64,000 nt of DNA from Hormiphora californensis (taxonomy: Eukaryota; Animalia; Ctenophora): positions 6,882,001 through 6,946,000 of the forward strand of contig CM035357.1 of the NCBI GenBank assembly GCA_020137815.1, in the 5' to 3' direction. The position numbers and the translations under genes are program-made. The notes under the pieces are model-generated. The model saw nothing but the letters and a program-made list of their open reading frames with translations. It ran no database searches and had not been told where the DNA came from. Of this stretch, positions 1,921 to 61,189 are shown piece by piece. The first letter of the stretch is position 1, and each line of letters starts with the position of its first letter.

Positions 1921-2553
1921 TGACTGGAGCGATGGGTGCAGAGGGCTGGGGCTTCAGTGGCCTGTGGGAATCCAATATCAAGGTAATATTCCAGCGCTGA
2001 CGGCATACAGTAATCAGAGACTAAGCTAGGCTTTTCCTGGTGTTTTTCGGGCTGGGGGAAGTGAGGAACGAGAGAATTTTTCACGTTTTCAAATTTTTCT
2101 TAAAATTTTTCTTAAATCTTTTCAAAAATGAAATCGCGTGGAAGATGAAATTCAAAGCGCGCACCTAAGAAAGCAGCGCTTTTACAAAAATAACTCGCGT
2201 GTTCCATTTTGTGCCCAATTTGGCGTCGCAGTTATAATTTCCCCGAGCTAGGCCGCGGCGCTTTTTAAAAACTTCCAAAAAGTTTCAGATTTTGAATTTT
2301 TGAATTTTCAATTTTGATCGAACAAGTCAGTTTACTGTCGAATGTCGACGCACTTTGCCGGTTGTACAGGTGTCTAATGTACACTTATATTGGGTTCAAC
2401 AAATTCTAGATATTTTGACGCTCGCGAGTCGCGGCTCGTGGCTCGTGGCTACTGCCTACTACTGGCTCAGCTGTCCACTTTAACTTAATTCTTAAACTAA
2501 ACTTCAACTTAAACTTATATCTGTGTATGTAATAATCACCATTTTAAATAGTC

Positions 2554-3446
2554 ATGGATTTGGAATGTGTTGCTGAAAATTCTCATACTACATCGGTTAT
2601 AAAATCTCCCATCCCGCCACCCACCTTGACAGAACCCTGCTGTGTTGGTATCGACGAGGCAGGTCGGGGCCCTGTACTGGGACCCATGGTGTACGGTATA
2701 GCTTACTGCCCTGTCTCAAAGATACCCGATCTAACAGAACTGGGTGTCAATGATTCGAAACAGCTGAAAGAAGCGGACAGGGAACGAATTTTGGCAGGAA
2801 TAAATGAAAACAATGACTACATCGGGTGGTGTGTTAAAGTTCTTTCCTCGAACTTCATTTCTAACTCAATGTTGGGTCGTGAGAACTACAACCTCAATGC
2901 TATGTCTCACGACACCGCTATCTCACTTCTCCAGGGCTCCTCGACAACGGGATCAATGTTCAAGATGTATATGTTGACACTGTCGGTCCTGCAGATAAAT
3001 ACCAAGCAAAGTTGAGTGGAATCTTCCCCGCTTTGAACATAACAGTAGCTTCCAAAGCGGATGCCAAGTATCCGATATGTGGTGCCAGCAGTATTTGTGC
3101 CAAGGTAGCCCGAGACAAATGTATCGAGACGTGGGCCAACCCAGAGAGTAACATGGATATATCGGAGTGTGGTAGTGGGTATCCTGGTGATCCTAATACC
3201 AAGGATTGGCTGAGGAGGAATGTTGATCCAGTTTTTGGGTTCCCCCAATTTGTCAGGTTCAGCTGGTCAACAGCAGAGAACATCATGGTGAAGGATTGTG
3301 TGAATGTAACTTGGGATGATGAGGAGGAAGAGGAGGAAAACGTCCCAAAAATTAACTCCTTTTTCAAAAATATCCAAAAAGAATCCGACATATCCCGGCA
3401 TCGGTTCTACCATGAGCAGGGGTTGAAATCAAAAACGGTTTTGTAG
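2554..3446 (+). CDS. RNASEH2A: Ribonuclease H2 catalytic subunit A, intronless, one apparent frameshift at GGG 2934-2936
   Basis: GIDEAGRGPVLGPMVY, DSKQL, SHDTA; adding one G at 2934-2936 gives LLDNGINVQDVYVDTVG in frame with KADAKYP..ASICAKV, GSGYPGDP and VFGFPQFVRFSW. Confidence 0.93.
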
Positions 3447-3615
3447 TGACATATTTGAGTATTTTTAACCAATATTTTAACTGTATTTTACTTGATATTT
3501 TATGATATATTCGATAGATAATTAAAACACCCTTTGTTTGTTATAGACATGTTCAATACTCATGATTAACCCTCACTCTTTTCTAGCAAACATACATGAC
3601 AAGTAACATCAGTTT

Positions 3616-5959
3616 ATGCGACTGACTCGGATCCTTTTTGCGATGGCTAAATCTAAAGTTATCTACGAGGATTACCGTCCCTTAGAGGAGCTGGTTCGAG
3701 GTCTCAACAATGGCTCCCTTTCCCGGTCTACCCTGCGAATAAACCAGAAGAACCATGTCATTTCCTTCGTAACAGGTGACAGTGCTTCAGATAAAGATAT
3801 TCTCATTGAAGGGACCTTCAAGAACAGAGCCCTAAATGGCGACCAAGTTGCATATGAAATCCTCCCAAAGGATCAGTGGAAGCTGAGGAAGACAGACCTG
3901 GCTCTCTCCCTGGTTGGGGGTGATAAGAGTGGAGAGGTGCCGGTCCAAATGAGCAATGAGGTGAAATATCGAGGTGTTATCCACACTGTTCACACCGTTG
4001 AGGAGCAGTTCCTTCAACGTACCGCCAAGGTTGTGGGGATTCTTGAGAAGGTTCACACTCGAAAAGCCATGGGATACGCTAAGGGGTACAACCAGAACTT
4101 TGCAATGTTCAGCCCCATTGATAGTCGTGTTCCGAGGTTGCTGATACCACTGAAAGAGTTCCCAGCGGGGTTTAGGGAGCGGCCAAAGGACTATGATGAC
4201 AATTTGATGGTTGCCAAGGTTGATCGGTGGGAGAGGGATGGTAAGTTTGCTTTTGGGACGCTCCTAAAAGCCATTGGATCGGGAACCGATGACCTGGTTG
4301 AATCAGCTACTGAGGGAATTCTAGACGAGTATGGATTGGACGCAACTGAATTCCCTGATGACATCAACACAGAAATCCCAGACTTCCAGATAACTGCTCA
4401 AGATGTGGCTGATAGAAGTAAGTTTGACTTCCGCAAGAAATGCGTTTTCACCATTGATCCAGCCACTGCCCGAGATCTTGATGATGCGTGTTCGGTTGAG
4501 AAGCTTCCAAACGGTAACTATGAGATAGGGGTACACATTGCTGATGTCAGTCATTTCGTGCTACCCGGTACACGGGTTGATGAGATAGCGAGAGAGCGAA
4601 CTACATCTATCTACATGGTTCAGAAAGTAATCCCAATGTTACCCAGAAAGTTGTGCGAAGATCTGTGTTCCCTGGTCCCCGGTGTCGATCGGTTCTCATT
4701 TTCTGTGGTGTGGGAGATGACGGGGGACGGGAAAGTGCTGTCAACAAAGTTTGGTAAAAGTCTGATTTGTTCCTGTGCTAAACTCCACTACGCCCATGCT
4801 CAGGATATGATTGAGGCGCCGGACCGGGATTTTGCTAAAGAAGACCTTCCCGAGATTTCTAACGGGTTCACTGCACAGGATCTAGTCGTGGAGGGTTAAC
4901 GTTCTTCACCGGATAGCACAGGTGTTCCGGGCGGGTAGGAAAGAGAAAGGTTCCATCTCGATCCAACAGTGTAAACTGAGTTTTGCTCTCAACGAGACAC
5001 GAGATATGCCACTAGGGTTGGGGAGCTACAAGAGTAAGGAAAGTAACAAACTGATCGAGGAATTCATGTTGAAAGCTAATGAGAGTGTAGGCTACTAAGT
5101 TATACGAAGTGTTACCCAGGTAACGCGATACTAAGGAAGACACCCCGGACCAAAGGAAAATGTGCTGGAAAGTAGTACAGAGCTCCTGAAACGTATGGGA
5201 CTGGAGATTGATACGAGCTCCTCTAAAGGCATGCAGGAGGCCCTTAACTCACACACAGTGGCAGGCCTCAAACCTACCCCTACAGGTCTTGTTATAGCAG
5301 TCCCTTCTTGCTAAGGCAATGACTCTAGCTACCTACCATAGCTTCGGGAGAGTTCGAGGACTTTCAAAGAGTATCATCATTATGGTCTCTCTATGGACTT
5401 GTACACCCACTTCACATCACCTATCAGACGATACCCCGATCTTATTGCACATCGCCAACTCCAGGCCATTTTGGAAGACTTGCCAAGAGGAGGAGGGACC
5501 CATGAGTTTTGACGAGGTGTCTGAGATAGCAGAACGGAGCTCCGGTAAAAAGTTTGCATCCAAACAGGCCAGTGATAAGAGTGGAGAGTTGTTCCTGTGG
5601 TTGTTTGTCCGGGAACAAGGCTTGGTCTTGGAGGAGGGGGTTGTCATTGAGATAGGAGATCAGAGTATAGATATTCTAGTGTTACGGTTCGGTCTGCAGG
5701 ATCCGGGTTTGGAGAGATTTCCTGGGCGATGGCGCTGAATTCCAGTCGAAAGAGAAGCACTGGGCACATATATCATGGCCGGCCAAGGGTGAATTGAAGG
5801 CTGAGAGTGTGCGGTATGAGTTGCTTGGATAAAGTTGTGGTGGGGATTAAAGCGGGAAAACAGCTATTCAAGACATCGGGTGTCCTGCCTAGACCGGGTA
5901 GCCTGGCCGGGAAGGACCTTGTGACATATGATGGTGTTTACTCACCAGAGGATGTTTGA
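3616..5959 (+). CDS. DIS3L2: DIS3-like 3'-5' exoribonuclease 2 (RNase II/RNB family), intronless, several single-base indels in the 3' half
   Basis: [57 protein letters not shown]; after frame correction [13 protein letters not shown] (~5040) and [26 protein letters not shown] (~5375-5460); no N-terminal PIN domain; probable stop TGA 5957-5959. Confidence 0.85.
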
Positions 5960-9500: not shown

Positions 9501-12500
9501 ATAAGCTCTTCGCCCAGATTGAGTATTGCACAACATGCTGTTACGGGGGTTGTGCAACATCAACCTCAATATTACACATGACATGGAGTACTGCCACTTC
9601 ACATGTGTAATCTTGACGTTTATATTAATTGAATATTAATTGAATATTGGAGGATGCAGTTCCCACGCACACCCCCCTTTACTAATGTGTGACGTCACCT
9701 TGACAGAAAAGAGAAAAAAGACTATGAAAAGATGAAACTATTGACAGAAAAGAGAAGATAAAACTATCTTGACAGGAAAGAGAGACCCTTGATCGCGTCA
9801 TAGTCTATCCACGTGCCCTGTTAAATAGTAACATGTCAGTTACCAGACTAGGTATTTTCAATAAATAGACCACCCACAACTGCAGCAGCAGCCACCCACG
9901 GCTGGTCACGTGTTTACTGTTAAGTCTCCTACCTATTGGGCACCCCTCCACTAAGTTTATCCATCTCTTGCCCTCTCTTGCCGGTTGCCCTCTTCTTTTT
10001 TCAAATACCTCTCCATCCAGGCCTTCTTCTTTATTTCAGAGCCACATGTTAACTCCCATAATAATGTTCTGCAGGTTGATCCAGTTACCTATGCAGTTAA
10101 CCCCCAATAATGTTCTGCAGGTTGACCCAGTTACCTATGCAGTTTACCCCCAATAATGTTCTGCAGGTTGACCCAGTTACCTATGCAGTTAACCCCCAAT
10201 AATGTTCTGCAGGTTGACCCAGTTACCTATGCAGTTAACCCCCAATAATGTTCTGCAGGTTGACCCAGTTACCTATGTAGTTAACCCTGCTGATGTGGCC
10301 CGGGCAGTTAATTCCAATACTGTGTGTATCGTGGGCTCGGCTCCACAGTATCCCCATGGAATTATGGATGATTTCGTGGCCCTTAGTGAGATTGCTGTCA
10401 GGTAAAAACAACCAATTGCCAAGCTAGACTGCCATTCGCACGCTCCGAACGTATAAAATGGAGCTTTCGTTTCATCTCTCTCTCGGATACATTAGATACT
10501 TCAGTGGTTACCCCACGCTCGACCACCTAACAACTTCCTCCCTCAGGCACGATATTGGTCTCCACGTTGATTCCTGTCTTGGTGGATTCCTCATCCCCTT
10601 CATGGAGGATGCTGGATTTCCATTACCCCTCTTTGATTTCCGGTTACCAGGGGTTACCGCTGTCTCCATAGACACCCATAAATACGGTTACACCTACAAG
10701 GGATCCTCAGTAGTCCTCTACAGGTACTTGAATCACATCGCTCATTAATTACTTATTGATCATAATCCAACAGCGCCGTTGTGGGGGCCGTGTAGCTTGA
10801 TCTACCTGTCATGCAAATATGCTCTGACCACAGTTCTCGCACGCTCCTTATTCGAAAGAAATGAGAATAGGGTCAGGCCAATGTTTATGACATGACAGTG
10901 ATCTATCGAACCCTCGCTGACCGGTGTGAGTTACACCTGCCAAAACACCCTACAATGATCCAACATTCCACTTCAGGAGTTTTGAAATGTTTGGTCACCA
11001 GATAACTAGTACTAGCGACTGGGCGGGTGGTGTGTACGCCTCGCCCTCCGTAGCAGGAAGTCGTCCTGGAGCAAATATCGCAGTTACCTGGGCATCCATG
11101 ATGAGCTTCGGGCACAAAGGTAAGGTTTTCTGCTTGGAATTGCAGCGGTATTTTTAGCTATTTTATATTTGCATTCATTGGTTTTTCTTCCCAGCACCAC
11201 GGAAACCAAAGATTGTTCAATAACTGATTATCGTGCCCCACCCTCATTCCTCCAAACTTTCAGAGCATATAGTTGAGTTCCTTTTTTGGAGAAAAACATA
11301 GAAATATTTTACCAGAGCATGTTTGCGTCGCGAAATTGAATTTCAATTGGTGATTGCAGTTTCAGTCAAACCATTCAATCGAATTCCAATTCTGAATAAT
11401 GAAATCTGAGCAAGAATTACTTCCTGAATTCCAATTCATGATTCGAGACGTAAACCAGCTCTAGTTAAATCTCTTATCATACCTGGCGAAAAAAGTTTTT
11501 TTTTGTAATTAAAACAGTAACCACTTGATGGTTTGGTATCGCCGCACCTTTGACAATGAGATATCAGTACAGTACGAATATCACGTACTGCACAGTCAGA
11601 TAGCAGCTGCACTCAATTGAGCCGATCATGTCTGAGTTTCTCTTCCTTGCTAAAACCATCAATAATTCTCTCCCTACCCGACTACTTAAAGAGCACCTCG
11701 TCGCGTTAAAACTATTCGTAGAACCCAGCTTCCTTCTTTAGAACACATGAAAACTTCCTCTAACTCTTAACGTTTTTAGGTTATGTAGCTGCAACGAAAG
11801 AAGTTATTAACGGAGCCCGATACTTTATTCAAGGACTGCTTAAAATCGAAGGAATTAAGGTAAAATTGAAAGATTGCTTATTATGTATTTAATCCCATGT
11901 CCCATCGCCCCCCTCGAAGATCTTCTGGTCAAGGTTTATACCGCTCTCCACGGGTAATGCTGTCACAAACATAATGTGGTTTATTAATAGCATAAATCAG
12001 GACAATTCATGAGAAAATTCCATAATGTTCTACACCGGGGGGGGGGGGGGGTCCAACCTATTTTTTGTATGTTTGTACGGAAAAAAACAAGTGTTTCCTC
12101 AAACAATAAAATACAAAAAAATACAAAAAAGTACAAAAAAATACAAAAAAATAAAACGGGGTATAAATGATTAAACAAAGCTTTTCCTCGCCCCCATGAC
12201 CGCCCTGTTTGTAACGTAACTAATTGTATTGTCTGTCCTTGTATGTCGGGTAAATATGACTGTAGCGTGAAGGGTGTTGTGTATAACATCACGTGTTGTA
12301 TATGTGGTGATTTCTATGTTGGAGTCTCCAACATAGAAACTTGGAGAAACATCACGACCTATTCATGACCGTTTTCTCGAACACAGACAAGCCGCTACTA
12401 CACCACACAAACACCCAAGTAATGGTATCGCTTGTCATTATCTAGAGAAACACAAAGGAATACTACCTTCCCTGAAACTCGAGATATTGGCGAGCGGTAC

Positions 12501-14068
12501 CACGAATACCATCAAACGCAAGATTATTGAAGCTAGCTATATCAAGCGATTAAAACCAGAGCTAAATAACAAAGACGAGTGTGAACTAGTACAATCTTTT
12601 CTGCTCTGATTGTGACGTATATTGTACAGATATAATTGTAGTTCCGTGTGAGGATAAGTGACCGAATGAGAGAGAGGGAGAGAGAGAAGGTGTGAGTATG
12701 TGAGAAAGTGAGTAGTATAGTTCTTATTGATATTTAAGTAATTGAGTGATTTATTAACTAACATTTCTTTTCTATTTATAGCTGATGATGACGTTAAACG
12801 TCGAAACCGTCCCGTATTATCTTTCCTGAAATAAATCTCCGAGTCGTCTACAGTCCCAAATAAACACTATTTCATTGCTTTTCTGATCGTTGAAACTTTA
12901 GTTTATGATCATAATTGTGTCATAAATTCCTATTAAACTGTGGTTTCATACAAAATTAGCATCTTTTTCTTATAATTGGAAGATAAAAACATGTTTTAAT
13001 CATGTTTTAATTGTTCTTTATCAAAACACAAGGAAATATTCTATTCAAAATTTTCGAAATATCTGAATCAATGATGTTTACTTTTTCGAATTTCGAATGA
13101 AAGATAATAAATACACGACAAACGTTCCCAGGTGGTACATTAGCACAAAAGGAACCCGTCCATGAACTTTTACTAGGCCACCTCCATAATTTGTTGTACT
13201 TCTTTTGTACTGTTTGTACGAAAAATCGGAATTTCTAAGAGAGAAAATCTTTCCAAATCGAAATTTCTATCCAAGAAAGTATTATCGAATCGCAATTTCT
13301 AAGCGAGAGAAATTTTCCCGAATCGCAATTTCTTACCGAGAAATTTTTCTCGAATCGTATTTTCTAAGCGAGAAATTTACCCGAATCGCAATTTCTTACC
13401 GAGAAAATTTTCTCGAATCGTATTTTCTAAGCGAGAAATTTCCCCGAATCGCAATTTCTTACCGAGAAAATTTTCTCGAATAGTATTTTCTAAGCGAGAA
13501 ATTTCCCCGAATCGCAATTTCTTACCGAGAAAATTTTCTCGAATAGTATTTTCTAAGCGAGAAATTTCCTCGAATCGCAATTTCTTACCGAGAAAATTTT
13601 CTCGAATCGTATTTTATAAGCGAGAAATTTCCCCGAATCTCAATTTCTTACCGAAAAAATTTCTCGAATCGTATTTTCTAAGCGAGAAATTTCCCCGAAT
13701 CGCAATTTCTTACCGAGAAAATTATCCCGAATCGAAATTAGTACCGAGAAAGTGATCTCCAAATTTTCTCGTAATCGTAATCTGAATCAATGATTTTGCT
13801 TTTTCGAATTTCAAAAACGTGTACTTTTACATACTTTTTTTTGTACTTTTAGCAGGAACATTGATGACAATGGAACTGAAAACGTTCCTAGGTGGTACAT
13901 GAACATAAACGGAACCCAGCTATGTATTATTTATACTTTTATCAGGCACCCACATCCTTAAATATTTTTTTGTATTTTTTTGTATTGTTTGTATGGAAAA
14001 AAACAGGAATTTCGGATACTTTTATGTATGGTCCGTACAAAAAAGTACAAAAAATAGGTTGGAACCCC

Positions 14069-14101
<33 letters not shown>

Positions 14102-17100
14102 CTGTTCACCATTTATTAAGTCGAAGGGCTACTTTTACTAATGATTCCTCGAGAAGTCTTCTTGGCAGTCTAATATAACTAATTGCAGGTCATGGGAAAG
14201 CCTGAGGTATCCTGTGTTGCGTGGACGAGTGATGAGTTTAACATCTATAACATGTCCAGTGATCTATCTGGCAAGGGATGGAACTTAGCTGTACTACAGT
14301 TCCCTGCTGGTTAGTGTGTTACATGTCAATAATATTAATAAAGCTAAAGTTTGTATAAATATATTCCAGTTTGTATAAATATATGTCTGGTGACGCCGGA
14401 TGCAGATACCGTTTTGACTTGTTCAGTTAAAGGGGTTAATCATCAAGGGTTGATAGTGCGCTCTCAGGTCAGGTCGGCGCCGCCAGATGACAGAGATCTT
14501 TAGCAAGATCTTGATAAAGATCTGTCTTGTCAGAGTAACGAATATATTAACCTGACATCGAGGTTGGAGCAGAAAATTAAAATGATGCATTCCCCTTACA
14601 AAATTCCCATGACTGCAATTTTAATCTGTATGTCCTGTCAAAATTTTCATTTGGGGGACTATGTCCGATTCCTCTTTCTCTCTTGTGCGGGGGAACGGTA
14701 AACTAAATCACCTGTCTCCGTATAATAGTCAACTACCAGGGAGAAACGTTGACAAAAATATAAGATTAAAAGCATCGACGGGGAAATTCTATGTAATGTT
14801 TTAGCTCTCCGCTCCCATATTAATTTGAATATAATCGATCTCAGCGGAGTCAGCGGAGTATGAAATAGAAGGACTAAGTGCTGATCTGCAATAGCAAGCA
14901 ATGATGTCCCATTAAATTTTAAGATGCAAGGGTGGGGTTGTGGGGTCCCTGCCGTCCCCGACTACACCATTTTGGTCAAAGGTATTGTTTCCATTCGACA
15001 TGCTTCCAACTAAATACTATACAGTATACCAGTGTGGTGAGAGTGTATTTAGATTGTGTGAAGTGAGGGTGAGTGGTGATGGTCTCAGGTTTTGTTCTAG
15101 AAAGGTACTATCAAAACACAAGATATACCAAAGTGGTAAGTAATTTTTCAAAAATTACTTACCAAATCAAGGTCCTGTCTCCAAATAAAAAAACAGCAAA
15201 TATTGTGTATCCAGAAGTTTTGTAACTGATGTTTTTCTATTTGGAGACAGGACATCAAAATATGTTGTTTTACTTTTAAACATTTCCTCGGATACAATTT
15301 ATCAGCACTATTAGTGGCATTATTTATGAAGGAGTATCATAATGTTAGATCATTTCACTAGAATAACTTTCGTCATTTGTATGTAGTTGCAGCAGCTCCT
15401 CTCCCTATTGTTGTGTCACAAGCCGATGTGGTTTATTTCACTTTATTAAGAGTTCCAGATTTCGGAGATAATGAGACTGTTCTGGCCCATGCAAATAACC
15501 TATATCAAGAAGAAGAATTGGAGAGATTATACGGAGCAAGTTTCCTTCACCTTATTTTTGTATTGTAATTTTGAGACACTCCGGGTTCCTCCTGGCCGGT
15601 ATTTATACGTCGCAGACTGGCGTTATCAAAACGTGAGCAGGGGCTTGCAACTCCGTCAACTTGGCGTCGTGGTCCCCTATCGGCTTATCACTATCTTCTT
15701 CTTCTTCTTCTTCGTAGAGGCTGTCTCTGCTTATCACTATCAGTGCAGGTGTGCGGTGAAGGAAACTTGCTCCGTATAATCTCTCCAATTCTTCTTCTTG
15801 ATATAGGTTATTTGCATGGGCCAGAACAGTCTCATTATCTCCGAAATCTGGAACTCTTAATAAAGTGAAATAAACCACATCGGCTTGTGGAGCTCCTCTG
15901 CAAAAACCGTTATCGGTGGTCCTTAACCGAATTACCAAACTCGGAGCATGTCCGAACATACTGTTACAATTATGGGGCGTGCTATCCCCTACCTTAATAT
16001 GAGCCATGGTAATTTGCCCATTCACATAAATACAACCAGGGGTTTTATATATATCACATCACTTCAAGTGATAACTAAAACCCTGAATCTATAACATACT
16101 ATTAACTATCATAGGGGGCACATATCCAGTGACCCCGCATCCACCTCTCTCTCCAAGGAAGTTTCCAAAGAGAAATAGCTTCTGCCCGAGTATCCATTTT
16201 CTCGGCCCAACCATTACCAAAACCATTTCGGTAGTTCCACTCCTGTTGGATATATGACAGGCTAGGGGGCACATAATAGTGACCCCGCATCCACCCCTCT
16301 CCCCAAGGAAGTTTGCAAAATTAATTAACGCCTGTTCGAGAGTTCATTTTCTCGGTCCAATCATTACCAATCTAGCTTGGTAGTTTCAACATCCATGGAG
16401 TATAATTTCCCCATATTATGTCACTAATCTGTCAGAACTTTGGCCTGACCCTATTCTCATTTCTTCAAAACCGTGGCCACTTGGCCGGACAACTGGCGAT
16501 CAATGATCGCCCAGTAGTTAATTTCAATACTACCGCCCAGACACGAGCTGTTGATTCACCGCATAGAATCTAGACTATTATGTGCTCTAATTACAGTCTT
16601 GAACTGTACACAAAACAATACCATCGATTATGTATTGACCGATATATTCCACTTTGAGTGTGGATCCAGGTACACAACGGATGGTTCTATTGGCTGCATA
16701 AACTACTCTTATTTGAGCATAAATTCTCATCACATTTCACAATGTGGGTTCATTACCTATTAGCTATAAACTGCTCTCATTTGAGCACGATTACTCGCCA
16801 CAATTACTCAACATATTGTATCGGTCTTCTTCAATACCCATGGGTTCCTGTCTGGCGGCGCCAGACCCCAATTTCATTCTCCCCATTTATGGGGTTCATT
16901 CACCATTATCGGCAAACTGCTCATATTTGAGCATTATTCGTCTGCCTGCTTGTGGAGGGTTCATCCCTGCACAGATTGAGCATACCAGCTTAGAAGCTAA
17001 GCTTGTCATTCCATAATAAATCAGCAAGATAGGTCAGAGGTCTTGCTTAAATTAAACACATCACACTTGATAATGCTGCTATGCATTCAAACTTATAAAA

Positions 17101-20100
17101 CTGGTTCATATTACCAGTACTGCATTGCCCGGTAAATCGGGGTCAAATACCGTAAATTTCCTATTTTGGGGGAAGTTTACCCTCCCGGTAAATTGGGGTT
17201 CCGGTAAATCGGGGCCCGGTAAATTTGGGTCCGACTATAATAGTGGAATATCAGCCACTACCAGTACATTGAGTTATCAGTGGAATATCCACTATCAGTA
17301 CATTGAGTTATCGGTGGAATTATCCACAATAAGTACATTGAGTTTAGTGGACTATCTCCACTATCTCCACTATCTCCACTACAAGTCCATTGATTTACAA
17401 GCGGACTATCACCACTAACAGTACATTCATTTACATTCACCAATAATAACACATCATATCAGATCATACTTACATAATACATATTATATATCCTATATAT
17501 TCATGGGGGAGTCTTCTGGTAAAATCTAAGGAAAAGGTAGCATACACTGCTCAAATACCCAAGAAAGAACGCCAAAAGGAAGAGCAGATCCCAGCGGATC
17601 TCTCCTGGGTACCTGTATGACACACTTCCCCTACAATTTCCCAGGTGCCCTGTTCGCTAGTTATTCACTGCACACCATACAACTATACCTGTATTCACAT
17701 ATTAATTCACTGCACTCAATACAATTACATGCATTCACTTACAAACATTGAACAGGGCCATGGCCATACTTAATTACATTTCAATATTCCGGTGGAAAAT
17801 ACCTCCACCCCGGTGGGAAAACACCCCCACCCAGGCAATGCCTAACAAAATCTATTTACCTCCCCCAACAGTGCAGACTTTTCTTACCTTATTCGTTGTA
17901 CGTAGTATATCTCATATCATATCCGGTGGTTGAATACTGTGCCGTCAACTGTAGCTTCCATCACCACTTGTCCCCGACTTTTCCTCAAGCCATCATTATC
18001 TCTTCTGTCTGGTGATCGTACTCCTCTCCAATGATTCCAATGAGTGGGTTATGAATATGGGTCACTCCCATCCCACCGTGTCACTTACACCTTTCACCCG
18101 TTCCGGGTTTAAATCATCCTACTCTGGAACAGTAAATAGTGGGCATACAGAGCCCAATTTCATAGCCTTTAGGTAGTTCAACTTCTACCTGATATTGGTC
18201 ACTTGTCATTACACAAGACAACAATCCAATCGTATTGACCGGCTCAATCGGAATAGTATCCCGGCCGGTGGTCCACCAAACACGCACCTTACAGAATGAT
18301 CAATGGTGATCAACAGTATACATCAATGGTGTATTACATCACTTCTTGACTTCCATCCAATATATGGAATACCTTCACATGATGATGAGAGGATGGTATC
18401 CTCTGCTTTCAAATTCAAAATAATATACAACACCCCTCATAACTGGGGACCTGACTGAGCGAGGTATCATGTTTCCTCCCACATGTAAGAGACAAATCAG
18501 CAGGGGATTATTGTTCAGCCCCTGGATATCAGCAACATCTGCAACAACAAAATATACTTGTATCTCCACAGTATGTGGAGCTAGCCCGATACTCATTCGA
18601 TCAAACTGTCGCGCACAGTACACACTGCACAACTCATAGTAGTGCCCTATGCACTAATCAGATTCCATTCACAGGGGTCTCTACTAAAATTAGAGCCTTT
18701 ATTCACTTATTATTCACCAAACCGTACCCGTGCAGTGGATATTATATATTTCCACACACAGTTGTCAGTTAATAGACACAGGTGTGTAATATTTTAGGTT
18801 TCCACCTTCTGACTCCCAATGCTAATTGGGACAAAGACTCCTGCCGAGGTGTTTCTCACGCCATCCGCGTCCACCTCGTTAACAGCCCCCATTATATTTG
18901 AGGGTGTACCTAAATCAGAGGATCTATTCCCTCTACAGGACCATGGTTACTCCCCGGCCCCCGCTGTTAATTCCAGCCCTGGTTTCCAGGATAATTACTG
19001 TAATTAGACCAGTCATTATGGTACTCAGATCCGTTGTCCCAATTATCAGACCAATTATTGCGGTCACCAGACCAACTTTGTCCTCCAGAGTTTAACTCTC
19101 TGGAGTTCCCGGGATACCTTCCCCAACAATCCGAACACTCCCAACGTGGTGTTCGATCATTATCGTACTGCATGTTATTCTGATATTGGTAATCAGATAT
19201 CAGGGGTATATTCCTCAAACTGTCGTGAAGGCCCAGATCGATTCACTTGTGAGAATTCAGTTCTGAAAGCTGGGACTGCTACAGCCTCCTCTCTTCTCTC
19301 AACAACTCTCCCCCGGATGGTTTTCCGGGCCTGATGCGAGATTTCAAGCGTTATTGCCTCCTCAAGGAGTCTATTAAAATTCATATTATTAATGTTCCGA
19401 ATTAGCTGTATGCTAACCTCATCATTTATAATACCCGCAGCTAGAGCATCTTTCATTACCGAGTCCCTACTACTCCTTGCAATTGGATCCGTGTTAGGGA
19501 ATCCAATGTTACCCAAATCTCGGAGTCTCTCTCCGAATTCATGCACTGATTCACCAGCTTTTTGGCTGGAATTTCGAATATCAAATCGTGCTTTTAATGC
19601 GTTATATCTAGAGCTATCCTCTAGAATTCTCCGAGCACCCTCCTTATACACAGCCCAGGACGACGTGTCCAGGTTCGATTCGACAATTCGTTCCTGCATT
19701 TTTGGTGGCAGGTATGTTACAAAACCCCCGATAATGGCTGCTTCACTCAGCCCCAAGACATTAACAAAGGCCTCATAACCACAGAGGAACTGTCTTATAG
19801 TCATTTGTGCAGGTGAGTACACCAGCGGCTGTCTCATTCCCGCTGTCAATAAGCGGGTATCTAGTTCCTTGTTTCCTCCCAAGGCTCTCTGCAATTTTAA
19901 CAGGGCTTTAATTCCCTGTTTATTCTCCTCCGGCAGATCGTGAAGGTTTTCCTTCCTGAGTAATTCCTCCAGCTTTCTTTCAAAAGCTGCCTCCGCTGCT
20001 TTCACCGCATCGGCGAAATTGCCTGGCTCTAACCCAGGTTCTATCCTGGTTACAGCACCATTTGTGGGGTCCCTGCCGTCCCCGACTACACCATTTTGGT

Positions 20101-22759
20101 CAAAGGTATTGTTTCCATTCGACATGCTTCCAACTAAATACTATACAGTATACCAGTGTGGTGAGAGTGTATTTAGATTGTGTGAAGTGAGGGTGAGTGG
20201 TGATGGTCTCAGGTTTTGTTCTAGAAAGGTACTATCAAAACACAAGATATACCAAAGTGGTAAGTAATTTTTGTATTGTAATTTTGAGACACTCCGGGTT
20301 CCTCCTGGCCGGTATTTATACGTCGCAGACTGGCGTTATCAAAACGTGAGCAGGGGCTTGCAACTCCGTCAACTTGGCGTCGTGGTCCCCTATCGGCTTA
20401 TCACTATCTTCTTCTTCTTCTTCTTCGTAGAGGCTGTCTCTGCTTATCACTATCAGTGCAGGTGTGCGGTGAAGGAAACTTGCTCCGTATAATCTCTCCA
20501 ATTCTTCTTCTTGATATAGGTTATTTGCATGGGCCAGAACAGTCTCATTATCTCCGAAATCTGGAACTCTTAATAAAGTGAAATAAACCACATCGGCTTG
20601 TGACACAACAATAGGGAGAGGAGCTGCTGCAACTACATACAAATGACGAAAGTTATTCTAGTGAAATGATCTAACATTATGATACTCCTTCATAAATAAT
20701 GCCACTAATAGTGCTGATAAATTGTATCCGAGGAAATGTTTAAAAGTAAAACAACATATTTTGATGTCCTGTCTCCAAATAGAAAAACATCAGTTACAAA
20801 ACTTCTGGATACACAATATTTGCTGTTTTTTTATTTGGAGACAGGACCTTGATTTGGTTTGGATTCCCAACACGGCTCATCGCCACATATAGCTGCCCGT
20901 GACTGAAGAATGAAGATTCGTGGCAAGCCACACCCACTCTTTCCATTGTTTGTCCTGAAAATATGAGCATGTATATAATACTCTACAGTCAACGTGTATA
21001 CGATATTGTCTTTATGAACGACATTTACCTTGTGCTTTGTTTGAAGTGAGGACGAATGATGGCCGGACAGGGAATTGTTTCCGGGTCAGCTTGAAGGGGA
21101 AAAGGTTATCACTTGGGGACATCGGGATTCTTGGAATCATGATCTCGTTTCCCTCAAATGGTCCGTGTGATATAGCCGCGAAGATGGTATGTGTGCCAAG
21201 TGCCTGAAAGTGAGAGGTGCAAATTGGTTAGAAGTGCAACTTAGCGGTAGTATAGAATGTTTTTTAGTATACTTAACATAAAATTCATTTCCGTGCACCT
21301 CTTACTTTAATTGTGTATGTCGTCCCATTGCAGTGGCCGTGTTGGGGGTGGAGGTTCCTAAGTAGCATAATCGGGCATCCCACCTTTAACGTCAGGGATA
21401 TAGGCGGGAACCCAGATGGGGTTAGTGAGTTGAGGAACTCCTGGGGATACAGATGTTGGTCTTGATCGACCGAGTCATAGCCTCTATAAACCTTCGCATC
21501 CCCTGAAAAATAAGTCGATGAAGAAAAGGATGAAGACGGTAAAGATAATATGAATATATCTCATAAATAGATGCATACATACCCGGGAAACGATCAAGCA
21601 TCTTGTTATTAAGATAATCCAGAGTTTTATTGGTCGGAACGATCAGGGCTCGCCTAGAAATCCATCTTCCGTCGCTGTATCGATTCTCCAAACCCTCAAA
21701 TACCCAGTCCATCAAGTTCTCTATTGTCCCGTTGAACGCCATATTTTCACTTATGGCGATCAGGTTTCCATTGTTAAGAGGTAATCGTCCGCTCCCAAGA
21801 TGCGAAAGATAGTCTGCGTATGATCCATTATCTCCACTCATAACGCTTCTCATGTTTGTGGAAAAGGTGAACGTCCTGATGTCTTTCCATATATAACTCT
21901 TTTTGAGGCACGATTGCACTATTTGTCCCCTTCCTCCTTTCCGCACTACAGGCAATACCTGTTTCCAGTCTCCCGAAAAAACCTAGGGAATTAAAATTTA
22001 AATAATAAGTTAAATAATCATACTATTATGTAACAATGCACCATAATAGATTTGAACTTACAACAGTCAGTCCTCCAAATGAAATATCTTGCTGTAATAG
22101 GTCTCGCAAAGAACGGTCGAGGGCTTCAAAAACGTGCTTGTGACCCATGGAGCACTCATCAATCACCAGAAGTGACGCCCTTTTCAGAAGTTTCCCTGTC
22201 CCATCCCTTCTTGAAAACCCTGATATATATTTCGTGATGAACTGTGATAACCGTTTTTTACTCACAATAAACATTAACTGTGAGTATCTAGATACAATTT
22301 TGTTGAAATGTACCTGCTGTAGAAGAACTGGATAATTGCAGTGGAATTTTACAACGTGAATGGAGTGTTCTCCCTCCCGTTAGCAACGTTGATGCTATCC
22401 CGGACATAGCTGTTGCGATGGCGATCAACCCTTGACCTCGGACCGTGTCCAGCAATATATTTAGAGTATGAGTTTTTCCAGTTCCGCCGGACGCTTGTAA
22501 TGCAAAGCAATTAGCTACAGAATCAGATTGAATAGAATCCAAAACTGCCGTGTAGAATCTTTCTTGCTCATGGTTTAAAGTCGCTATTCTTGATGATAGT
22601 GAAATTTCAATTTCTGGAGAGAAAAGTGACAGTTGTTCCGTAATTAAACGATCTCCTTGTGGGTTTTCTTGAGCGCCAGTCAATTCGATTTCCTTGAAAA
22701 TAAATTCACATAATCACAATCAGATCAAATTTAACAGTTAGCATGCCAAGCCGTAGGGT

Positions 22760-22845
<86 letters not shown>

Positions 22846-25800
22846 TGGGAGATAAAAAGATGACGATGGATCGGGTATCAGATTGGAAAATACATACCGG
22901 ATATGGCAAATTAAAGTCTTCTAATGTATAATCTTGATCTTCCAGCGCATTCTTGATGTAAGTAAGGGAATCGTTTCTTGTTGTGTCCACAGATAAATCA
23001 TCACTAAATCGTTCCCAAAATGCACTTGGGTCCGATGGCTTGTGATACAGCAGTATGCTGATGAAGAAATCTCGTAGAACATCACCACACTGCAAATATT
23101 TTTTGGGTAAAAAGGACTAAAGTCGAAATGGGTTGTTTTGTGAATACCTTAACTGACACAGCTTCGTCCATGGTAAGATTGATTGAGTTGTCGTCTTCTA
23201 AGATACCATATCTAACACAGGCTTTTTGAAATGATCCGCAATGAACTCCATTGATCGTTAGAAGATCGTCAAAAGAAGTTGCTCCGGCCTGTTGTGAGAA
23301 AGATTCATTCAGATTTTTTAGTCTTATTTCTTAGATAGTACATGATTCTTTGGTGTTATTATTACCTTATGATATAAGAGAAGTCGAAGATAGTACTGCT
23401 CAGATTGACGGGGACTCAGGTTTATGATAGGAACTCTACCGATGGAAAACCCTCTTTTTCTTCTTTGCCATGACCTATGTAGGATAATTATTTATGAAGG
23501 AGCAAATACATTACATATGGTTTTCAGATCAAGCACTAAAGTGTCTCTTGATTAATTTAATTTTGGTTGATATTTTGGTATGTTACTGCGAAGCGGAAAA
23601 AGAGTAGGCATGTTTAAAGAGCTGGACCGTATCCTGGAAGAAAGGGTGGAAGAAAAAAATCCCAATCATAACAACTTGATGAAAAATTTAGAGATACTTG
23701 ACAGGAAAAAAAGATATATGCTAAAATTGAAAAGAGTAAGTGACACCTTCTCTCGTTTTAAATACTAATTTTATTCAATAACCCATAATGTCACATCTTT
23801 TCAGTTACAAAGGAAAGCAGAAAAAAATCTTGCAGAACTTGATATAATGAAGGAAATCCTTGACAATGACATATGCTACTCAAGTTTTATAACTCATTCT
23901 ATGATGCACCACATTTATTCTATGTATTAAAGTACCTTGTTTGCGGTATCCAAACGTAAAATTCAGGAAAATCTGGATAGAGAATATGTCTTGCACGGCT
24001 ATCACACTGATTGGCTTCAAAGTAGGCAAGAAGTTTTGTTTTTGGAGGACCTTCTTGAAGTGCTTCCTCTTCCTCCCCGTCTTGGAAAAAAACAGTCTGT
24101 TGGTTGGGAAGATGCAGATCCAGCAGGAGCACAGGTGGTGTTCGGAAACTCAAAGAGTATTGATAGATCCGCCAGAATGCCTCAGTGGCTGATATGTATC
24201 GGGCATTCTCATAACTTTCCACCTCATCATCTGCATTCATGCTCATGACAACTCGATCTTGACCTTTGAGGATATACTGAAATTAAGAAATGTGATTCAA
24301 CTTAATATGTTGGTAACTAAAAATAGTTAACATGATGCAACAATGGTGATTCGTACCTTTATAATGTATTACCTTATTTAGAGCAAAAACTAATTGAAAT
24401 TAGTTCGCCAGAAAGGTGGCCCATTTTGAACTTACTCCTTCATTTCCGTCACCTTTGAGTTGAGGTTTCAAAGACATTGAGGTACCCGTAAACTTTTCCG
24501 CCTTCAACTCAAAGGTGACGGAAATGAAGGAGTAAGTTCAAAATGGGCCACCTTTCTGGCGAACTAATTTCAATTAGTTTTTGCTCTAAATTTGTACTCT
24601 TTTTTGGTCGTTTGAGGTCATTTATGACCTCAAACAACTAAGATAATTGTCAACTAAAGTGTTCAAATGTAATTCAAATGTATCCTGGGTTGTAGGAAAC
24701 TGATTTGACGAAATTTTCAAAATTCGACATCGTTTTGACGTCGTGACGTCACATGTGACGTCACGACGACGTGAAAAATTATGACAGACTTTTAGAGCTA
24801 TGAAGCACTAAACGTGTGGAAAGTTTTAAAGGCCACGGTAGTCAAGAACTGAAGTTATTGCACGAAATGTGAGTTTTGGATGTGGATTTTTATATCAAAT
24901 TTTTGAGTTCCGACGCGTTTTAAGGTCTGAAGATGACACATTACAGAAATTCACTATATTGTATCTGAAAGTTCAGACAATTTGCCACTAACGATTTTCC
25001 GTCAAATCAGGAATCAGAGTACGTCTTGAGGGTGTTAGAGGCGTTTGAAAATTTTTGGTCTGAGATTTTGCAATGACGTCACTTTGTGACGTCATTATAC
25101 CCGTCATAGTGGACATTTTCACTTGAAACCTTAACTAATGCATGCCCCGAACGATTTCCTAACGGATAAAACTTGGTTCAAGTCTCTAGCTAGTATGGTT
25201 CGAGCTACAAGTGTTACACAGTGAAGCGTCTATATCTATCTATCTATATATATATATATATATATACCTATCGCCACACTGAATTTTCTGTTTTGGGGGT
25301 GGTGTCATAACTTGCGACCGAAATGAGCTAGCTACTTGAAATTTTTACCGTCAGTAAAGGTCTATGTGAAGCTTCTTGGCACCAAATTTCAGCCTCCTAG
25401 CTCATCTGGTTCCGGAGTTAGGAGGGGTCGAAAAGTGCCAAAATGGGCTAAAACTTCAAAATTGTTATATCTACGCTGTTGGCAAGCGGGCCCACTTTTT
25501 CGGGAAAAGTTTTTGGGGGATGGGATGGGGCCACCTTTGCGCTTGCCAGCGCAGTGATATAAGTATTTCACACACTTAGTTGAATGCACTACTTCAACAT
25601 TTATGTGGCAATTGTATCGTAGTGTCAAGATTGGATTGTATGGAACAACCCAAGAGTTATCGAGAAATCCGGTACGGTGCTGGATAAGAGCCCCTCTTCG
25701 CCTCCGATATTCGGGATAGTTATGGACATCGAGTGTTGTAGACTCTTGTAGTTTCTTCGGATACGACTTCGAACAGTGTCTTTCGTTTTCTTCTCCTACC

Positions 25801-28800
25801 ATACACGGGGATTTTCTGTTAACTGCACCACACGGACCGTGGATGTTGTGTTTCGTGACGATGCCATAGAGTTTAGGATTAATAACTGGGTCCGGTATCT
25901 CCGCACAGACTACTCTGTCCACTCGTTCAGGTGTGTTTGGGCCATCCTCTGAAGATAGAGTAAGTAGGATATGCACATGGGGCAGTCCCCGCTTTTGAAA
26001 CTCGATCGTTGCCAAAAAACAGACCACTTTTCCAAAGATATTCTTCGTTTGTATCTCATGTTTTAATTCCAGAAATTTCTGGTAGAAAACACGAACGCAA
26101 ATGTCAGGTCTATCAGCATGGGTCTCCCCTGGTCCAAGAGATGCAGTTATCTCCTCCCAGTTGGGGTTCGTGGTGAAGGTTATGAAAAGGTGCGGCTTTC
26201 CAAAACGTCTTACACACGCCATTGCATCTTGATACCTATAGGATATATTGATCTTATAGTTTTGAAGTTAAAAAAATGCAAATGGCAATAATAACAGTCA
26301 ATAATTTAGTAATACCTTGCATTATACCATCTCGGAGTTCCGTAAACTGATGGAGGTAAAATCACCCGCCTGCCAGCATCTTGTAACTCTCCTGCTTCCG
26401 CTGCATCGACTAAACCGGAGTACCTTTCTGCTCGGATTGCCGCTTGATTATAGCGGATCCAGTTAAGTCGAGAAGACTCAATTCTGGCAAAGGCATCGAC
26501 TGCGTACTGTTGACCCAGTCTACGAAAATTAAGTGGGCTGGTCCAGTTGTCTGTGGACCTCACATTGAGTCTATACCCATAGAACTCCAGTTCAGTCATT
26601 TTTTTATTGTTTATTGTCCTCAGACTGCGATGGTAGCCATCTGTTCCTCTCGAAAACATAAGGACATAGTGTAGGGGATCAATCACACAACCGGCAGAGA
26701 GATGAATCAAGGATGCACGTGCAGTTTAAGGCTCAAGCTGGCAGGTTGCCAGGGTCCCTCTAGGGACAACACGTGCAAAAGGCCATTTCCAGGAATTTTG
26801 TGCCATATTTGGTAAAAAAACCATCACCCATCATTTCCCTATTTGCTTTAATAATAGTATGATACCCATAGAACTCCAGTTCAGTCATTTTTTTATTGTT
26901 TATTGTCCTCAGACTGCGATGGTAGCCATCTGTTCCTCTCGAAAACATAAGGACATAGTGTAGGGGATCATAGCTCCTATGGAGGGGGCTAATCCTCCGC
27001 AGTCCGCCTTCACGCAAGTGGAGTATTACATCCAAATTTCCTGCTAGATCCCCAGGTAGGAGGGCTCCAACTTCACTTCCAGTAGGGAGGCCATACTGAG
27101 TGAGGTACGATCCAGTTGGTCTTCGGTCCTGATGTAGCACTAACTTTATTTCAGGAGATCTATTCATCAGATCTATCCCTGATTTAAGAGACCGCACATA
27201 GCTATTGATATTGTGGAGGATATCTCTTAGGTCTTGCATCAGTCCATGATTCAACCCTAAAGTGGTCAATTTGAAGAAGAAAGTAATTTCACAGACAATT
27301 AAACGTAGATAGTAGATTATACCTGTCATAAATTGGGATCTTGCTTGCATTTCCGTGTCCACAAAGTACATCTGGCAGAAAGAAGGTCGTTCTCCAAATG
27401 GGGGGAGAAGGGACCCAATTCTGTGATATATTTTCCCTTGTACAGAAAATGTTGGACTGAAACCTGGTTGCACTCTTTCATTACACCCTGAAAATAGGGA
27501 ACATTATATATTTATGAAGGAATTCGAATCAGAATGGGCAGGTGAAATAATAATTAGAATTTAGTAAAACGTACCTAAAGAAGCAAGGCAAAACAGATTG
27601 TTGTATCCTCTTGCATGCTCCATAATATTTGCTCGATTTGAAGACAGAATGTCAATGAGCGGTTGAGGTGGATTTGGAACAGCAGGAAGCCTGATGTTGC
27701 CATTCTCACAACACTGTGAACTGTTTTCTTTTGCAAATAAATATGCATTACAATAAGGACACTCGTTAGCTGTGATGGCACCAACATTGATCGGCTTTAG
27801 CTTTTGGACAATTGCAGTCTCGCGAATGTCACCAATCTCGAACTGTCGACATGCACCATCCCATCTTAAGTTACGGTAACGTAGAAGCAGCTCAGGTGGG
27901 ATCGCTGAGAGTTTTAGAACGTCAGATAATGATCATCAGGCGATCAAAGTGATAAAAGAACTTACTATTTTGCAGATTCCTCGCGTTTCGTCTGTTTAAT
28001 CTCCAACGTCTTGATCGTTCTCTCTGTAACTCTCTAGGCGTTGCTGCATTTAAACCCCTCAGTGTATTGAAAAGTTGAGAACGGCGTTGAGATCTTGCGT
28101 CAGTAACTATCTCCCGTTGTCGATGTCTTGTATCAGCAGTAGTTGAAGAAGGCATTATATTAGCTGGAACACACACAACAAAGCAAGATCAAATTCACGT
28201 GCACGTGCAGTACTGCATTAGCAACCATGCCATTGGCAACGGCTCCCACCCCTGGCCTCACTCCAGCTATAGTACTCCACCTCTTAACCTGCACGTGCAA
28301 AATGCCATATTTGGTAAAAATACCATCACCCTTCATTTCCCTATTTGCTTTAATAATAGTATGATTAAATGGGATTCAGAAGGATTCAGAAGTATTTAAT
28401 TTATACCATATTTTAATAAATTATGTCATTCTGAATACTAGTACAGTCCAATCCCGATTTAACGGCACCCGGGGGAAAGGGGTCCGACTGTATTATCAAA
28501 TCTCCCCCCTCCCCCAGGTATCCATATCGCCTTGACGCGACGTCATATGTCCCCTGGAGTGATAGATGAACTGCTATCTGATATCCGGGAGAGTGCGGTT
28601 AAACAACTAGCTGCCCCCAAATCTAAACCCAGCGGAGCTGCTGCTATGTATGGAATGGCTGCCCAGATCCCCGATAGGTAAGAATGTTGTGATCTATCAA
28701 ACCCTCATACATGAAATAAAATCCGGTGTGAGCCACACAAAGGATTGGCCTTTTTTTCTAGAGATACACGGCGATATCATCACATCTCCATTCTCCACGC

Positions 28801-32616: not shown

Positions 32617-57926
<25,310 letters not shown>

Positions 57927-58176: not shown

Positions 58177-60824
58177 TTTTGCGAAGGCCGGGGTACCGGT
58201 TCAAATAGAAAATATGTCAGTACAATATTATTTACATGAATAGATATAAAAATAAAATTTACTCTTACGGGTGTAATAAGTTAAGTATAAATAAATCAGA
58301 TAATAAGGTGAAAATCGTTTGTTTTGCTACAAAAATGTGTCCATTTATTGCCCCTGTACCCCCTGATGGCGATGAGAATGGTCTTCAGCAGCGAGAAAGA
58401 CAGACGGAGACGAATGTACCGGATGGCATCGTTGTAAGTATGCCCCGTTTTGTCTGATAGAAGTTTAGCAACCTTCTTGTAGAACACCTCCGCTTGGGGG
58501 CCCATAACCCCAGTTGTCGAGAAGACTAGAGGTGTGAAAGTTGCCTTCTCGACCTGAAGGACTCTGTCGTTGTAATTCAAAACCTTTTCCCTCTCGTGTC
58601 TCCTCATAGTGTCCTGGAGAGACTTGCCGATGTTGGTTGGCGCAAGACTGTTGAATACACGGATGTCAGTGTAAACTTTGTCCAAGTCACTCCACACATT
58701 GCGGGCAGAAACATCCAAACGGGCACTGTTAGCAGTGTTAGTAGAACGGTATTGGAATGTTTCACCAGTTATGGGTAGGAGCTGCGGCTCAATGCGGACG
58801 TCCTTGCAGCCGGCTTCCACGAGGATGTTAGCTGTGAGGTCTCGGATGTTATTGTGCCGTAAATACACGTAACCTCCCAGGGCACACGAGAGACAGTGCT
58901 CCAAAGTGTTCGCCTTGCCACAAGCACATGCAGCGGGTACATCTTCAAGGGGAAGGTTGTATCGCAGCAGAATGGCGTCCCGGAATTGTTGTTTATTTAG
59001 GACGAAACCGTGCTCCTTCAAAGGCAAAGCTGTTAACCAGCTTGAAGCTCCTCTCGATGATATTTCATCGAATAAACGCCTGTCAGTACCCCGGTGTCCC
59101 GATTTTTTTTTTCACGCCTGGAATTTTCATTTTGGGGGCTCGTTTTGCTGCAAGAATTTTACTGTTTGCTGCAGTCATGGATAGGGATTTTCCAAATTTT
59201 CTACCGTCCTAAACATGATTTCATTGGAAAAAATACCCCGGCAGTCCCTATAAGATTGGAATTTTTCCTGGAATATTCCCCTACTGCAGTCCCCTGCAGT
59301 CCCTATAAGATTGGAATATTCCCCTACTGCAGTCCCTATAAGATTGGAATATTCCCCTACTGCAGTCCCTATAAGGTTGGAATATTCCCTGGAATATTCC
59401 CCTACAGTCCCTATAAGTTTGGAATATTCCCTGGAATATTCCCCTACTGCAGTCCCCTGCTGTCCCTATAAGATTGGAATATTCCCTAGAATATTCCCCT
59501 ACTGCAGTCCCCTGCAGTCCCTATGATATTGGAATATTCCCTAGAATATTCCCTACTGCAGTTCACAGTTATCAAAATTCCTTGAAAATTCTCTGCAGTC
59601 CCTGCTGCAGTGCTGCAGAGATGGAATATTCCAAGAAAATTCCACTGCTGCAGTCCCTGCAGCACTGCAGCAGGGACTGCAGAGATGGAAAATTCCAAGA
59701 AAATTCCACTGCAGAGACTGCAACAGTGACAGTAACGATCTCACCCCTTTGTAAAGCTATGGGGAAAAAAGAGAGCTATGTCAAAGTATGAATCTCTCTT
59801 TTGTTTCCCCTTCCCCCTTACTCGACTGTTGTCGGTGCACTACGCACAACTGGGGCATGCCCCAACATATTCTATCTCTCTGTTATAACAGAGAGATATG
59901 TTAGAGAGAGAGAATATGTTACACACTGCTGCAGCACTCATCACTGCTCTGTGTGTAAGTATGGGAAATATCTTCTGCTGCAGTAGCAGCTGCTGCTGCA
60001 GTGCCCTAATATTTTTTCATTTTGCTGCATAGATTTTGTTTTGCTGCAGAATTTTTGCATTTATCTTTCCTTCATATTCCAGAGATCGGGACACTGGGGT
60101 CAGTACCAGACAGAAGTGAACATGCCTGTTGTTTTTCGGCATTTTGAATAGTACGTTTAAGTTTTAATACATTGCCCTTCGCTCCCTTCGCTTCCCAAAG
60201 GCATGAATCAGCACGTTTTTCGCTGATAAGAAGAGATTGTTCAAGGATCAGCTGTTTCAGGGGTTCTGTAGCCTGTGTAGAGTTCGCAAATTCAGCACTA
60301 GCCTGTGTAGTTGGGATGGGGATAGCTAGCCCGCCGTCTCGAGCAGGTAGGGCAGCAATATACCTCAGATGGCTAGGGGTGTTGGAACCCATAAGGGCTG
60401 GAATGAAAGATGACTTGATCATGTTCTCAAGAGGTGCAAACTGTTCTTCAATCCCCTCTGTAGTCCGCATCAGAAAAAGCCATTTCTTGGACAGACCGAA
60501 GGTATACCCACTGTAAGCACACTGTGGTTCCGTAGCAGCGATCTGGGACAGTGTTCGTACTTGGTTCACCCAATCCTCCACCTTTTCGGATACGACGTTG
60601 TTCTTAAATTCGTCAGTTCCGATAGGTGATCCCAGATACCTGACTCCTTCTGTAGTGATAACTACTCCTGTGCCCGCAAAAAGATCTCTAGCTTTACGGG
60701 CATACTGCTCTTTCACCAGAAGGATTGACTTTGACCCATTAGGGTAGTACCCATATCCTGGACCACGCTCACAGAGTTTCTCCCACCACCTCTTGATGTT
60801 ATGGAGTTTCCCAGCTGAAGCCCC
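58177..60824 (-). mobile_element. 5'-truncated CRE-clade non-LTR retrotransposon (RT C-terminus + CCHC + restriction-like endonuclease)
   Basis: GASAGKL..WWEKL..GPGYGYYPN..K, RYLGSPIG, LPARDGGL, ASSWL..P, CACG..H..C, RHN, RLD..D, FTPLVFST.G; 15-bp TSD ATCTATGTGTCAAGT at 58162-58176 and 60825-60839; short A tail. Confidence 0.88.
59090..60098. mobile_element. Non-autonomous TIR element with subterminal repeat arrays, inserted in the CRE ORF
   Basis: TIR CCC(G/A)GTGTCCCGAT; TSD GTCAGTAC at 59082-59089 and 60099-60106; excision restores LLSGTDRRLFDEISSRGASSWL in frame. Confidence 0.9.
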
Positions 60825-61189
60825 ATCTATGTGTCAAGTGATAATGAAATTCGACAAACTTCTAGTCTCTAGAACTCTAGAAGCTTCTTTCCCCGCTTGT
60901 TCTTTGTAGATAAAGATTCATAAAGATGTGTCAAGATCGAGTGTTTCTCTGTATAGAAGCATAATTTTGAAATGATTTAATTTTCCCACCACCTCTTGAT
61001 GTTATGGAGTTTCCCAGCTGAAGCCCCATCTATGTGTCAAGTGATAATGAAATTCGACAAACTTCTAGTCTCTAGACATCTAGAAGCTTCTTTCCCCGCT
61101 TGTTCTTTGTAGATAAAGATTCATAAAGATGTGTCAAGATCGAGTGTTTCTCTGTATAGAAGCATAATTTTGAAATGATTTAATTTTCC
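60781..61189. repeat. 203-bp tandem duplication spanning the CRE 5' junction
   Basis: tcccaccacctcttgatg... starts at 60781 and again at 60984. Confidence 0.9.

Follow-up and report, generated by a model that had tools for sequence, protein, structure and literature searches.

The closest described counterparts of the locus reported here are proteins that dock on the acidic patch of histones H2A and H2B. In the portions of a review of viral acidic-patch binders drawn on here, LANA of KSHV binds H2A residues E61, D90 and E92 through its R9, bridges to H2B through R7, and fills an H2A pocket at Y50, V54, Y57 and E56 with M6 and L8, while tethering by LANA uses a separate C-terminal DNA-binding domain (PMC9040877). 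The motif MXLRSG is essential for the binding of IL-33 to the H2A–H2B acidic pocket, according to the sections of PMC8750818 consulted, and chromatin structure changes when LANA and IL-33 peptides occupy the patch (PMC9040877, same portions). Foamy virus Gag, through its chromatin-binding site, and HCMV IE1, through its tethering domain, likewise dock proteins of mobile genomes on the acidic patch by an arginine anchor, as described in those portions, although their motifs differ and belong to large viral proteins. LANA, IE1 and foamy virus Gag are the proteins treated in the review, and the string 'transpos' is absent from its text.

Helitrons are DNA transposons that pass through double-stranded circles, which are genuine intermediates and may endure as episomes, as stated in the accessible part of a study of a model Helitron (PMC5876387). 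That paper raises episomal persistence and never mentions nucleosomes or chromatin. The additional coding capacity listed for Helitrons in the text available from PMC6431247 consists of RPA, OTU protease, AP endonuclease and captured host fragments, that is, single-stranded DNA-binding, protease and nuclease domains or fragments, and none of those described there is a small nucleosome-binding protein encoded antisense within an intron.

Here we analyse a Helitron in a 64,000-nucleotide window of DNA from the ctenophore Hormiphora californensis. It shares with canonical Helitrons that carry extra genes a RepHel protein with Helitron_like_N and PIF1 domains, a 5′ TC at an insertion site between A and T, and an additional open reading frame (ORF). 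The latter is an opposite-strand, two-exon reading frame in a RepHel intron, and its predicted product opens with an MXLRSG-type motif. Unlike LANA and IL-33, this protein comes from a transposon, in which an intron carries its gene in reverse orientation, and its nucleosome binding is a prediction.

Results

The RepHel gene (20791..28155, − strand) is of the canonical Helitron type and has 14 introns, including an extra one at 24372-24277. Its product matches Helitron_like_N (PF14214, E 5e-35) and PIF1 (PF05970, E 2e-20) in Pfam, both above cut-offs. The reading frame is broken by two insertions into three uninterrupted pieces of 358, 312 and 746 codons and contains no point stops. One insertion is a nest of repeats in a RepHel exon (24376..25555); the other is a second Helitron-type 5′ end (26682..26862, − strand) with a 109-bp duplication. 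Together they disable this copy. The second 5′ end (about 180 nt, within window positions 26573-26970) shares 61 of its first 63 letters with the true one. It lies between A and T at 26863/26862 with its target visible in the duplicate, and rejoins RepHel 109 bp upstream with a perfect duplication; the arrangement has the look of a template switch or of a sister element that was truncated.

A TC start between A and T is a hallmark of Helitrons, and the 5′ terminus of the element (28340..28365, − strand) has it at 28365/28364. Its RepHel protein (HUH Rep plus PIF1) and this terminus identify the element as a Helitron. The 5′ region at 28184..28213 (− strand) lies ahead of the RepHel start and carries TGCACGTG motifs, which within the window are confined to the two Helitron 5′ regions (26714-26777 and 28196-28299) and are candidate promoter or subterminal motifs. 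For the 3′ terminus, none of the seven candidates in 11000-21000 is a convincing hairpin followed by CTRR/T; a 27-nt inverted repeat is present at 20766-20847, and the 3′ end of the Helitron abuts another, rearranged element. The adjoining DNA (14938-20858) contains a gag-like ORF of 315 codons (19193-20140) that has no Pfam match, together with repeats of 100% identity in direct (336 and 211 bp) and inverted (391 bp) orientation; one of them duplicates the RepHel tail, and they reflect either a recent rearrangement or an assembly artefact.

Other parts of the window hold further features. At 2548-5738 (+ strand) there are long ORFs with few or no introns, which we take to resemble RNase H2 subunit A and a DIS3L2-type exonuclease. 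Those at 58296-60833 (− strand) are similar in appearance to the reverse transcriptase and restriction-like endonuclease of a non-LTR retrotransposon. A strongly skewed 3.4-kb minisatellite with long open frames occupies 40527-44038, and one tandem array occurs twice, in inverted orientation, at 13223-13764 and 55986-56777.

The RepHel intron at 23475..23935 (− strand) is 461 nt long. Excision of this and the later introns leaves RepHel open for 746 codons up to its stop, and the intron is therefore taken to be real. The initial annotation contrasted its size with about 50–100 nt for most of the others; of the 13 other RepHel introns, 12 measure 58–102 nt, so that it is 4 to 8 times their size, and the remaining one, which contains a microsatellite, reaches 205 nt. 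The same annotation had proposed that the intron is almost filled by an opposite-strand ORF of two exons separated by a 69-nt intron, and this model is present as claimed. On the + strand, an ATG at 23580 opens a first exon of 156 nt (23580..23735; 52 codons, phase 0). It is followed by a 69-nt intron (23736..23804, phase 0) with GTAAGT at its donor, TACTAAT at 23763 and TTTTCAG at its acceptor, and by a second exon of 41 codons (23805..23927) that ends in TAA at 23928-23930, giving 93 amino acids in all. The RepHel intron houses a reading frame that is likely to be a real gene of the Helitron.

Splice sites were scored with matrices built from only 13 host introns. The antisense acceptor is the best of the 30 AG sites on the + strand of the region, and the antisense donor (score 6.5) is the second best of the 19 GT sites. 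The top + strand donor of the intron (7.2, against 6.5 for the donor used) is TTG/GTATGT, which encloses the ATG at 23580, so that the start of the antisense gene is uncertain. At the other end, exon 2 divides into a coding-like part of 23 codons (23805..23873) and a tail of 18 codons plus TAA (23874..23930) that is not coding-like and has ATTAAA at 23926. Codons 76–93 (23874-23927) contain no charged residues. The ORF does end immediately before the host donor, as had been remarked, but given this uncharged, non-coding-like tail the position of the stop beside the donor probably has no meaning, and the gene may end elsewhere. A donor at 23884 (score 1.9) would lead to a third exon on the strand opposite the RepHel exon, a possibility that was dropped.

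The 461-nt intron also contains a 16-nt repeated motif (23487..23502, − strand), 77 nt upstream of the antisense ATG. Other sites are at 20685-20700 (+ strand), at about 27510-27522 (− strand, partial, in RepHel intron 2) and at 62074-62089 (+ strand). The four matches, one of them a duplication, compare with 0.08 expected, and the three within the Helitron each stand 10–20 nt before a YAG. The motif is a possible cis-element; wider homology around it was rejected (p 0.34).

An ORF of this kind proved difficult to obtain from shuffled sequence. None of 3000 dinucleotide shuffles yielded a spliced antisense ORF of at least 93 codons at the strict splice thresholds, which had been set post hoc at the candidate's own scores, nor did any of 3000 at the relaxed ones; when any GT-AG pair was admitted, 1 of 300 did. 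Block shuffles that preserve local composition reproduced the ORF in 0, 2, 0 and 0 of 3000 cases. When the window was divided into 1106 tiles, the relaxed thresholds admitted 11 distinct models of at least 75 codons, seven of them outside the true genes' own frames and the antisense site. The strict thresholds left four models in the same tiles: the antisense ORF and three true RepHel exon pairs, the latter being part of the training set of the matrices.

Markov models for coding sequence, intron and strand, trained on the window, assign the segments in the right order, as coding frame 0, + strand intron and coding frame 0. Exon 1 scores −291.9 bits in coding frame 0 versus −298.0 as host intron (−310.7 and −338.8 in the other frames); with this 6-bit advantage it is only mildly coding-like by itself (p 0.075; z 1.5, low-normal relative to held-out coding sequence). 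The composition switches to that of a + strand intron exactly at the 69-nt intron (−122.8 versus −131.1 and −139.9). A strong frame signal is present in 23805-23873, the coding score of which was reached by 0 of 2000 shuffles (z 3.5 against held-out true coding sequence), whereas 23874-23927 (z −0.7) lies below the 10th percentile (0.68) of true coding sequence of equal length. From these z scores, about 75 codons are gene-like and the last 18 are not. Taken with the shuffles, which gave 0–2 in 3000, these segment-wise calls support the view that the antisense ORF is gene-like, and it is unlikely to be due to chance.

Near-identical DNA is present in two organisms and, as a small share, in seawater metagenomes. 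In two further samples the region is about 99.6% identical, with frame and splice sites intact and neither an indel nor a stop. Both SNPs in the antisense ORF are nonsynonymous (L>V, and C>R in the non-coding-like tail) and a third lies within the 69-nt antisense intron, while all three SNPs in RepHel exons are silent. This pattern leans against constraint on the antisense ORF, on very small numbers. Contigs of the second organism continue for 488 and 1579 letters past the matched stretch, whereas the contig of the source sample ends after 100, at the repeat nest, which suggests that those copies have no nest. Two further runs under the same species label gave no contig of the region, which does not prove its absence, and a run presumed to be RNA likewise gave none, which does not bear on expression.

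A possible relative of exon 2 was found on a short second contig recovered in both runs of the source sample (215 and 198 nt). It matches 23828-23873 at 39 of 46 positions, the match stopping where the antisense coding signal stops; the 30 letters (10 codons) visible past the match are open in the same frame, which alone is weak evidence. At its upstream loose end, 16 of 17 letters agree with positions 28196-28212 of the Helitron 5′ region, where chance would give 0.01 matches. Our reading is that this contig holds a divergent relative of exon 2 that is linked to a Helitron, possibly in a rearranged element or with an extended C-terminus, which hints at a family.

Homologue searches used the two exons as separate queries, with exon 2 searched only against protein sets. 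Neither exon has a Pfam match, and a protein word search found no homologue of exon 1 at 28–91 amino acids or of exon 2 at 22–72 amino acids. The PDB returned seven matches for the ORF, all with E values of 0.8 or worse, and the best ESM Atlas results (0.84 and 0.87) were below the lead threshold. No homologue of exon 1 was found in metagenome, viral and genome contigs. A phmmer search of exon 1 against 1.84 billion representatives gave a single match, a TPR-like repeat protein, which was rejected as helical noise. For RepHel, the relatives comprise two proteins and three metagenome loci, which tell nothing about the 461-nt intron (two end before it and one is degraded); none was found in genome or viral contigs.

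Residues 1–6 of the predicted protein are MLLRSG, and the stretch encoded at 23580..23609 (+ strand) is the predicted acidic-patch anchor, with Arg4 as the anchoring residue. The assignment of a LANA/IL-33-type motif to this N-terminus is borne out, as MLLRSG fits the MXLRSG chromatin-binding consensus given in the consulted sections of PMC8750818. The chance of the exact motif at the N-terminal position is about 2e-5 with the composition of exon 1, or about 9e-4 for a loose version. By comparison with the LANA peptide (PDB 1ZLA), Met1, Leu3 and Arg4 correspond to LANA M6, L8 and R9, and the salt-bridge residue R7 is replaced by Leu. No sequence homology to LANA extends beyond the motif, and the antisense protein has fewer than 100 residues and no recognisable DNA-binding domain.

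AlphaFold, run on exon 1 without an alignment, predicts an unstructured head (residues 1–6) and helices at 7–26 and 28–51 (mean pLDDT 80.6, pTM 0.39). Hydrophobic heptad positions (L33, L40, M47, L61, I75 and L50, A57, L64, L71) run through residues 33–75 across the splice junction, with borderline periodicity (p 0.055), and this region is predicted to be a basic, heptad-spaced helix spanning the junction. No DNA-binding domain like that of LANA is evident in Pfam or the PDB; only a basic helix is predicted, and the true C-terminus is uncertain.

Residues 1–34 were modelled in complex with an H2A–H2B pair from a giant virus, used as stand-in histones (contig L004, Pfam histone match). In that H2A the acidic-patch residues are at canonical spacing. 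The complex scored 0.89, versus 0.00 for the best of three controls; among solved complexes 51 of 78 attain the mark used for such scores, as against 2 of 108 mismatched pairs, peptides being outside that calibration. The runs have at least 72% of their contacts in common, and the partner pLDDT is at least 70. The contacted H2A positions, numbered by spacing, are E56, Y57, A60, E61, E64 and E92. Arg4 is placed on the equivalents of E61 and E92 and Met1 on those of E56, Y57 and A60, so that the predicted contacts fall on H2A residues used by LANA M6, L8 and R9. Structure prediction with H2A–H2B had been put forward as a check of the motif, and its outcome is a LANA-like docking on stand-in histones that may be recall of a solved complex, because the LANA–nucleosome structure has been determined. 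The prediction shows likeness to LANA and not demonstrated binding.

Some observations on viral contigs touch on the same histones and motif. The stand-in H2A and H2B are encoded by neighbouring genes (L004:1862-3062) on a 912-kb viral contig, and their acidic patch is intact. In one codon spelling, the motif occurs in about 170 stretches of viral contigs, versus 43 for a scrambled control, but its N-terminal share is no higher than that of the control (12 of 121 versus 5 of 43). As in the antisense protein, it opens ORFs, in the form MxLRSGK, on contigs L043 and L084, with no homology beyond the motif. L084 belongs to a giant-virus bin. The ORF at L043:89-607, on a 2176-nt viral contig, has a weak match to the satellite-virus capsid family TNV_CP (E 2.5e-4, below cut-off) and possibly represents an acidic-patch motif on the capsid of a small circular DNA virus.

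Discussion

The best explanation of these results, which we hold tentatively and at slightly less than an even chance, is that the antisense ORF is a real gene of the Helitron, that its product binds the acidic patch through Arg4 as predicted, and that it acts as a chromatin anchor of the element. The proposal of a Helitron accessory chromatin factor is retained as far as the gene-like ORF, its motif and the predicted docking are concerned, and is weakened by the absence of an evident LANA-like DNA-binding domain in Pfam and the PDB. The simplest role for a protein with a nucleosome anchor and a helical stalk would be to hold a RepHel–circle complex on chromatin. We propose that transcription of the gene would start at a promoter within RepHel, its backward placement in an intron leaving the RepHel coding sequence untouched, and that the predicted helix may self-associate or bind RepHel or DNA. 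The anchor protein could then keep the RepHel-loaded double-stranded circle on host chromatin, and the circle would stay in the nucleus through division, close to integration targets. The stronger statement, that this Helitron lineage encodes a LANA-like protein to fasten its double-stranded circles on host nucleosomes and so maintain them as chromosome-riding episomes, is rather unlikely on present evidence. LANA tethers with its C-terminal DNA-binding domain and none is evident here, so that tethering is one of several uses to which an acidic-patch anchor could be put.

That the segment is instead a captured or rearranged piece of a gene of the host or another element, passively carried and decaying with no role in the Helitron, its motif perhaps having been functional in an earlier setting, appears unlikely. 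Helitrons are described as picking up gene fragments in the available text of PMC6431247, and the 5′-end-to-internal junction at 26682-26862 indicates that chimeras form in this Helitron family. A truncated piece would also account for the coding signal breaking off together with the second-contig match, and both SNPs in the antisense ORF are nonsynonymous. Against these points, a start, an N-terminal motif, an in-frame intron and a stop are all kept within one host intron, the splice sites of which are unharmed, and the second contig carries Helitron 5′ sequence, which makes the relative Helitron-linked rather than plainly a host gene.

Equally consistent with the gene-likeness and the predicted docking would be a real acidic-patch binder that works as an anti-silencing or chromatin-loosening factor in competition with host acidic-patch readers. 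Such a factor fits the lack of an evident DNA-binding domain and the alteration of chromatin by LANA and IL-33 peptides through patch occupancy (PMC9040877, in the portions consulted), but fewer than 100 residues leave little room for target specificity. Anti-silencing proteins encoded by transposons exist, as shown by VANC of the VANDAL elements, and count in favour of this explanation, which we regard as unlikely. Least probable, and quite improbable, is that there is no gene and that a U-rich intron, read on its complementary strand, yields a K/E/N-rich open frame with coincidental, reader-picked splice sites and motif: the blank homologue searches, the narrow margin of exon 1 over the host-intron model and the seven relaxed models elsewhere in the window speak for it, but the composition-preserving shuffles, the strand flip at the 69-nt intron, the strong frame signal at the start of exon 2, the unusual length of the host intron relative to 12 of its 13 sisters and the independent added improbability of the motif all argue against it.

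The literature searched, largely by title and opening of the abstract and outside most subscription journals and Repbase (which might list such an ORF), shows no Helitron gene of this kind, nor an acidic-patch or LANA-type gene of another transposon. If the chromatin-anchor reading is true, a viral trick would be extended to a DNA transposon, and long RepHel introns would prove able to hide genes that are masked by repeat annotation. A small, separate acidic-patch binder would also offer a direct handle on the biology of Helitrons, with one arginine to mutate in an existing transposition assay. Were the tethering of circles true as well, a dedicated acidic-patch tether would be a first for DNA transposons, and these Helitrons would be akin to latent herpesviruses.
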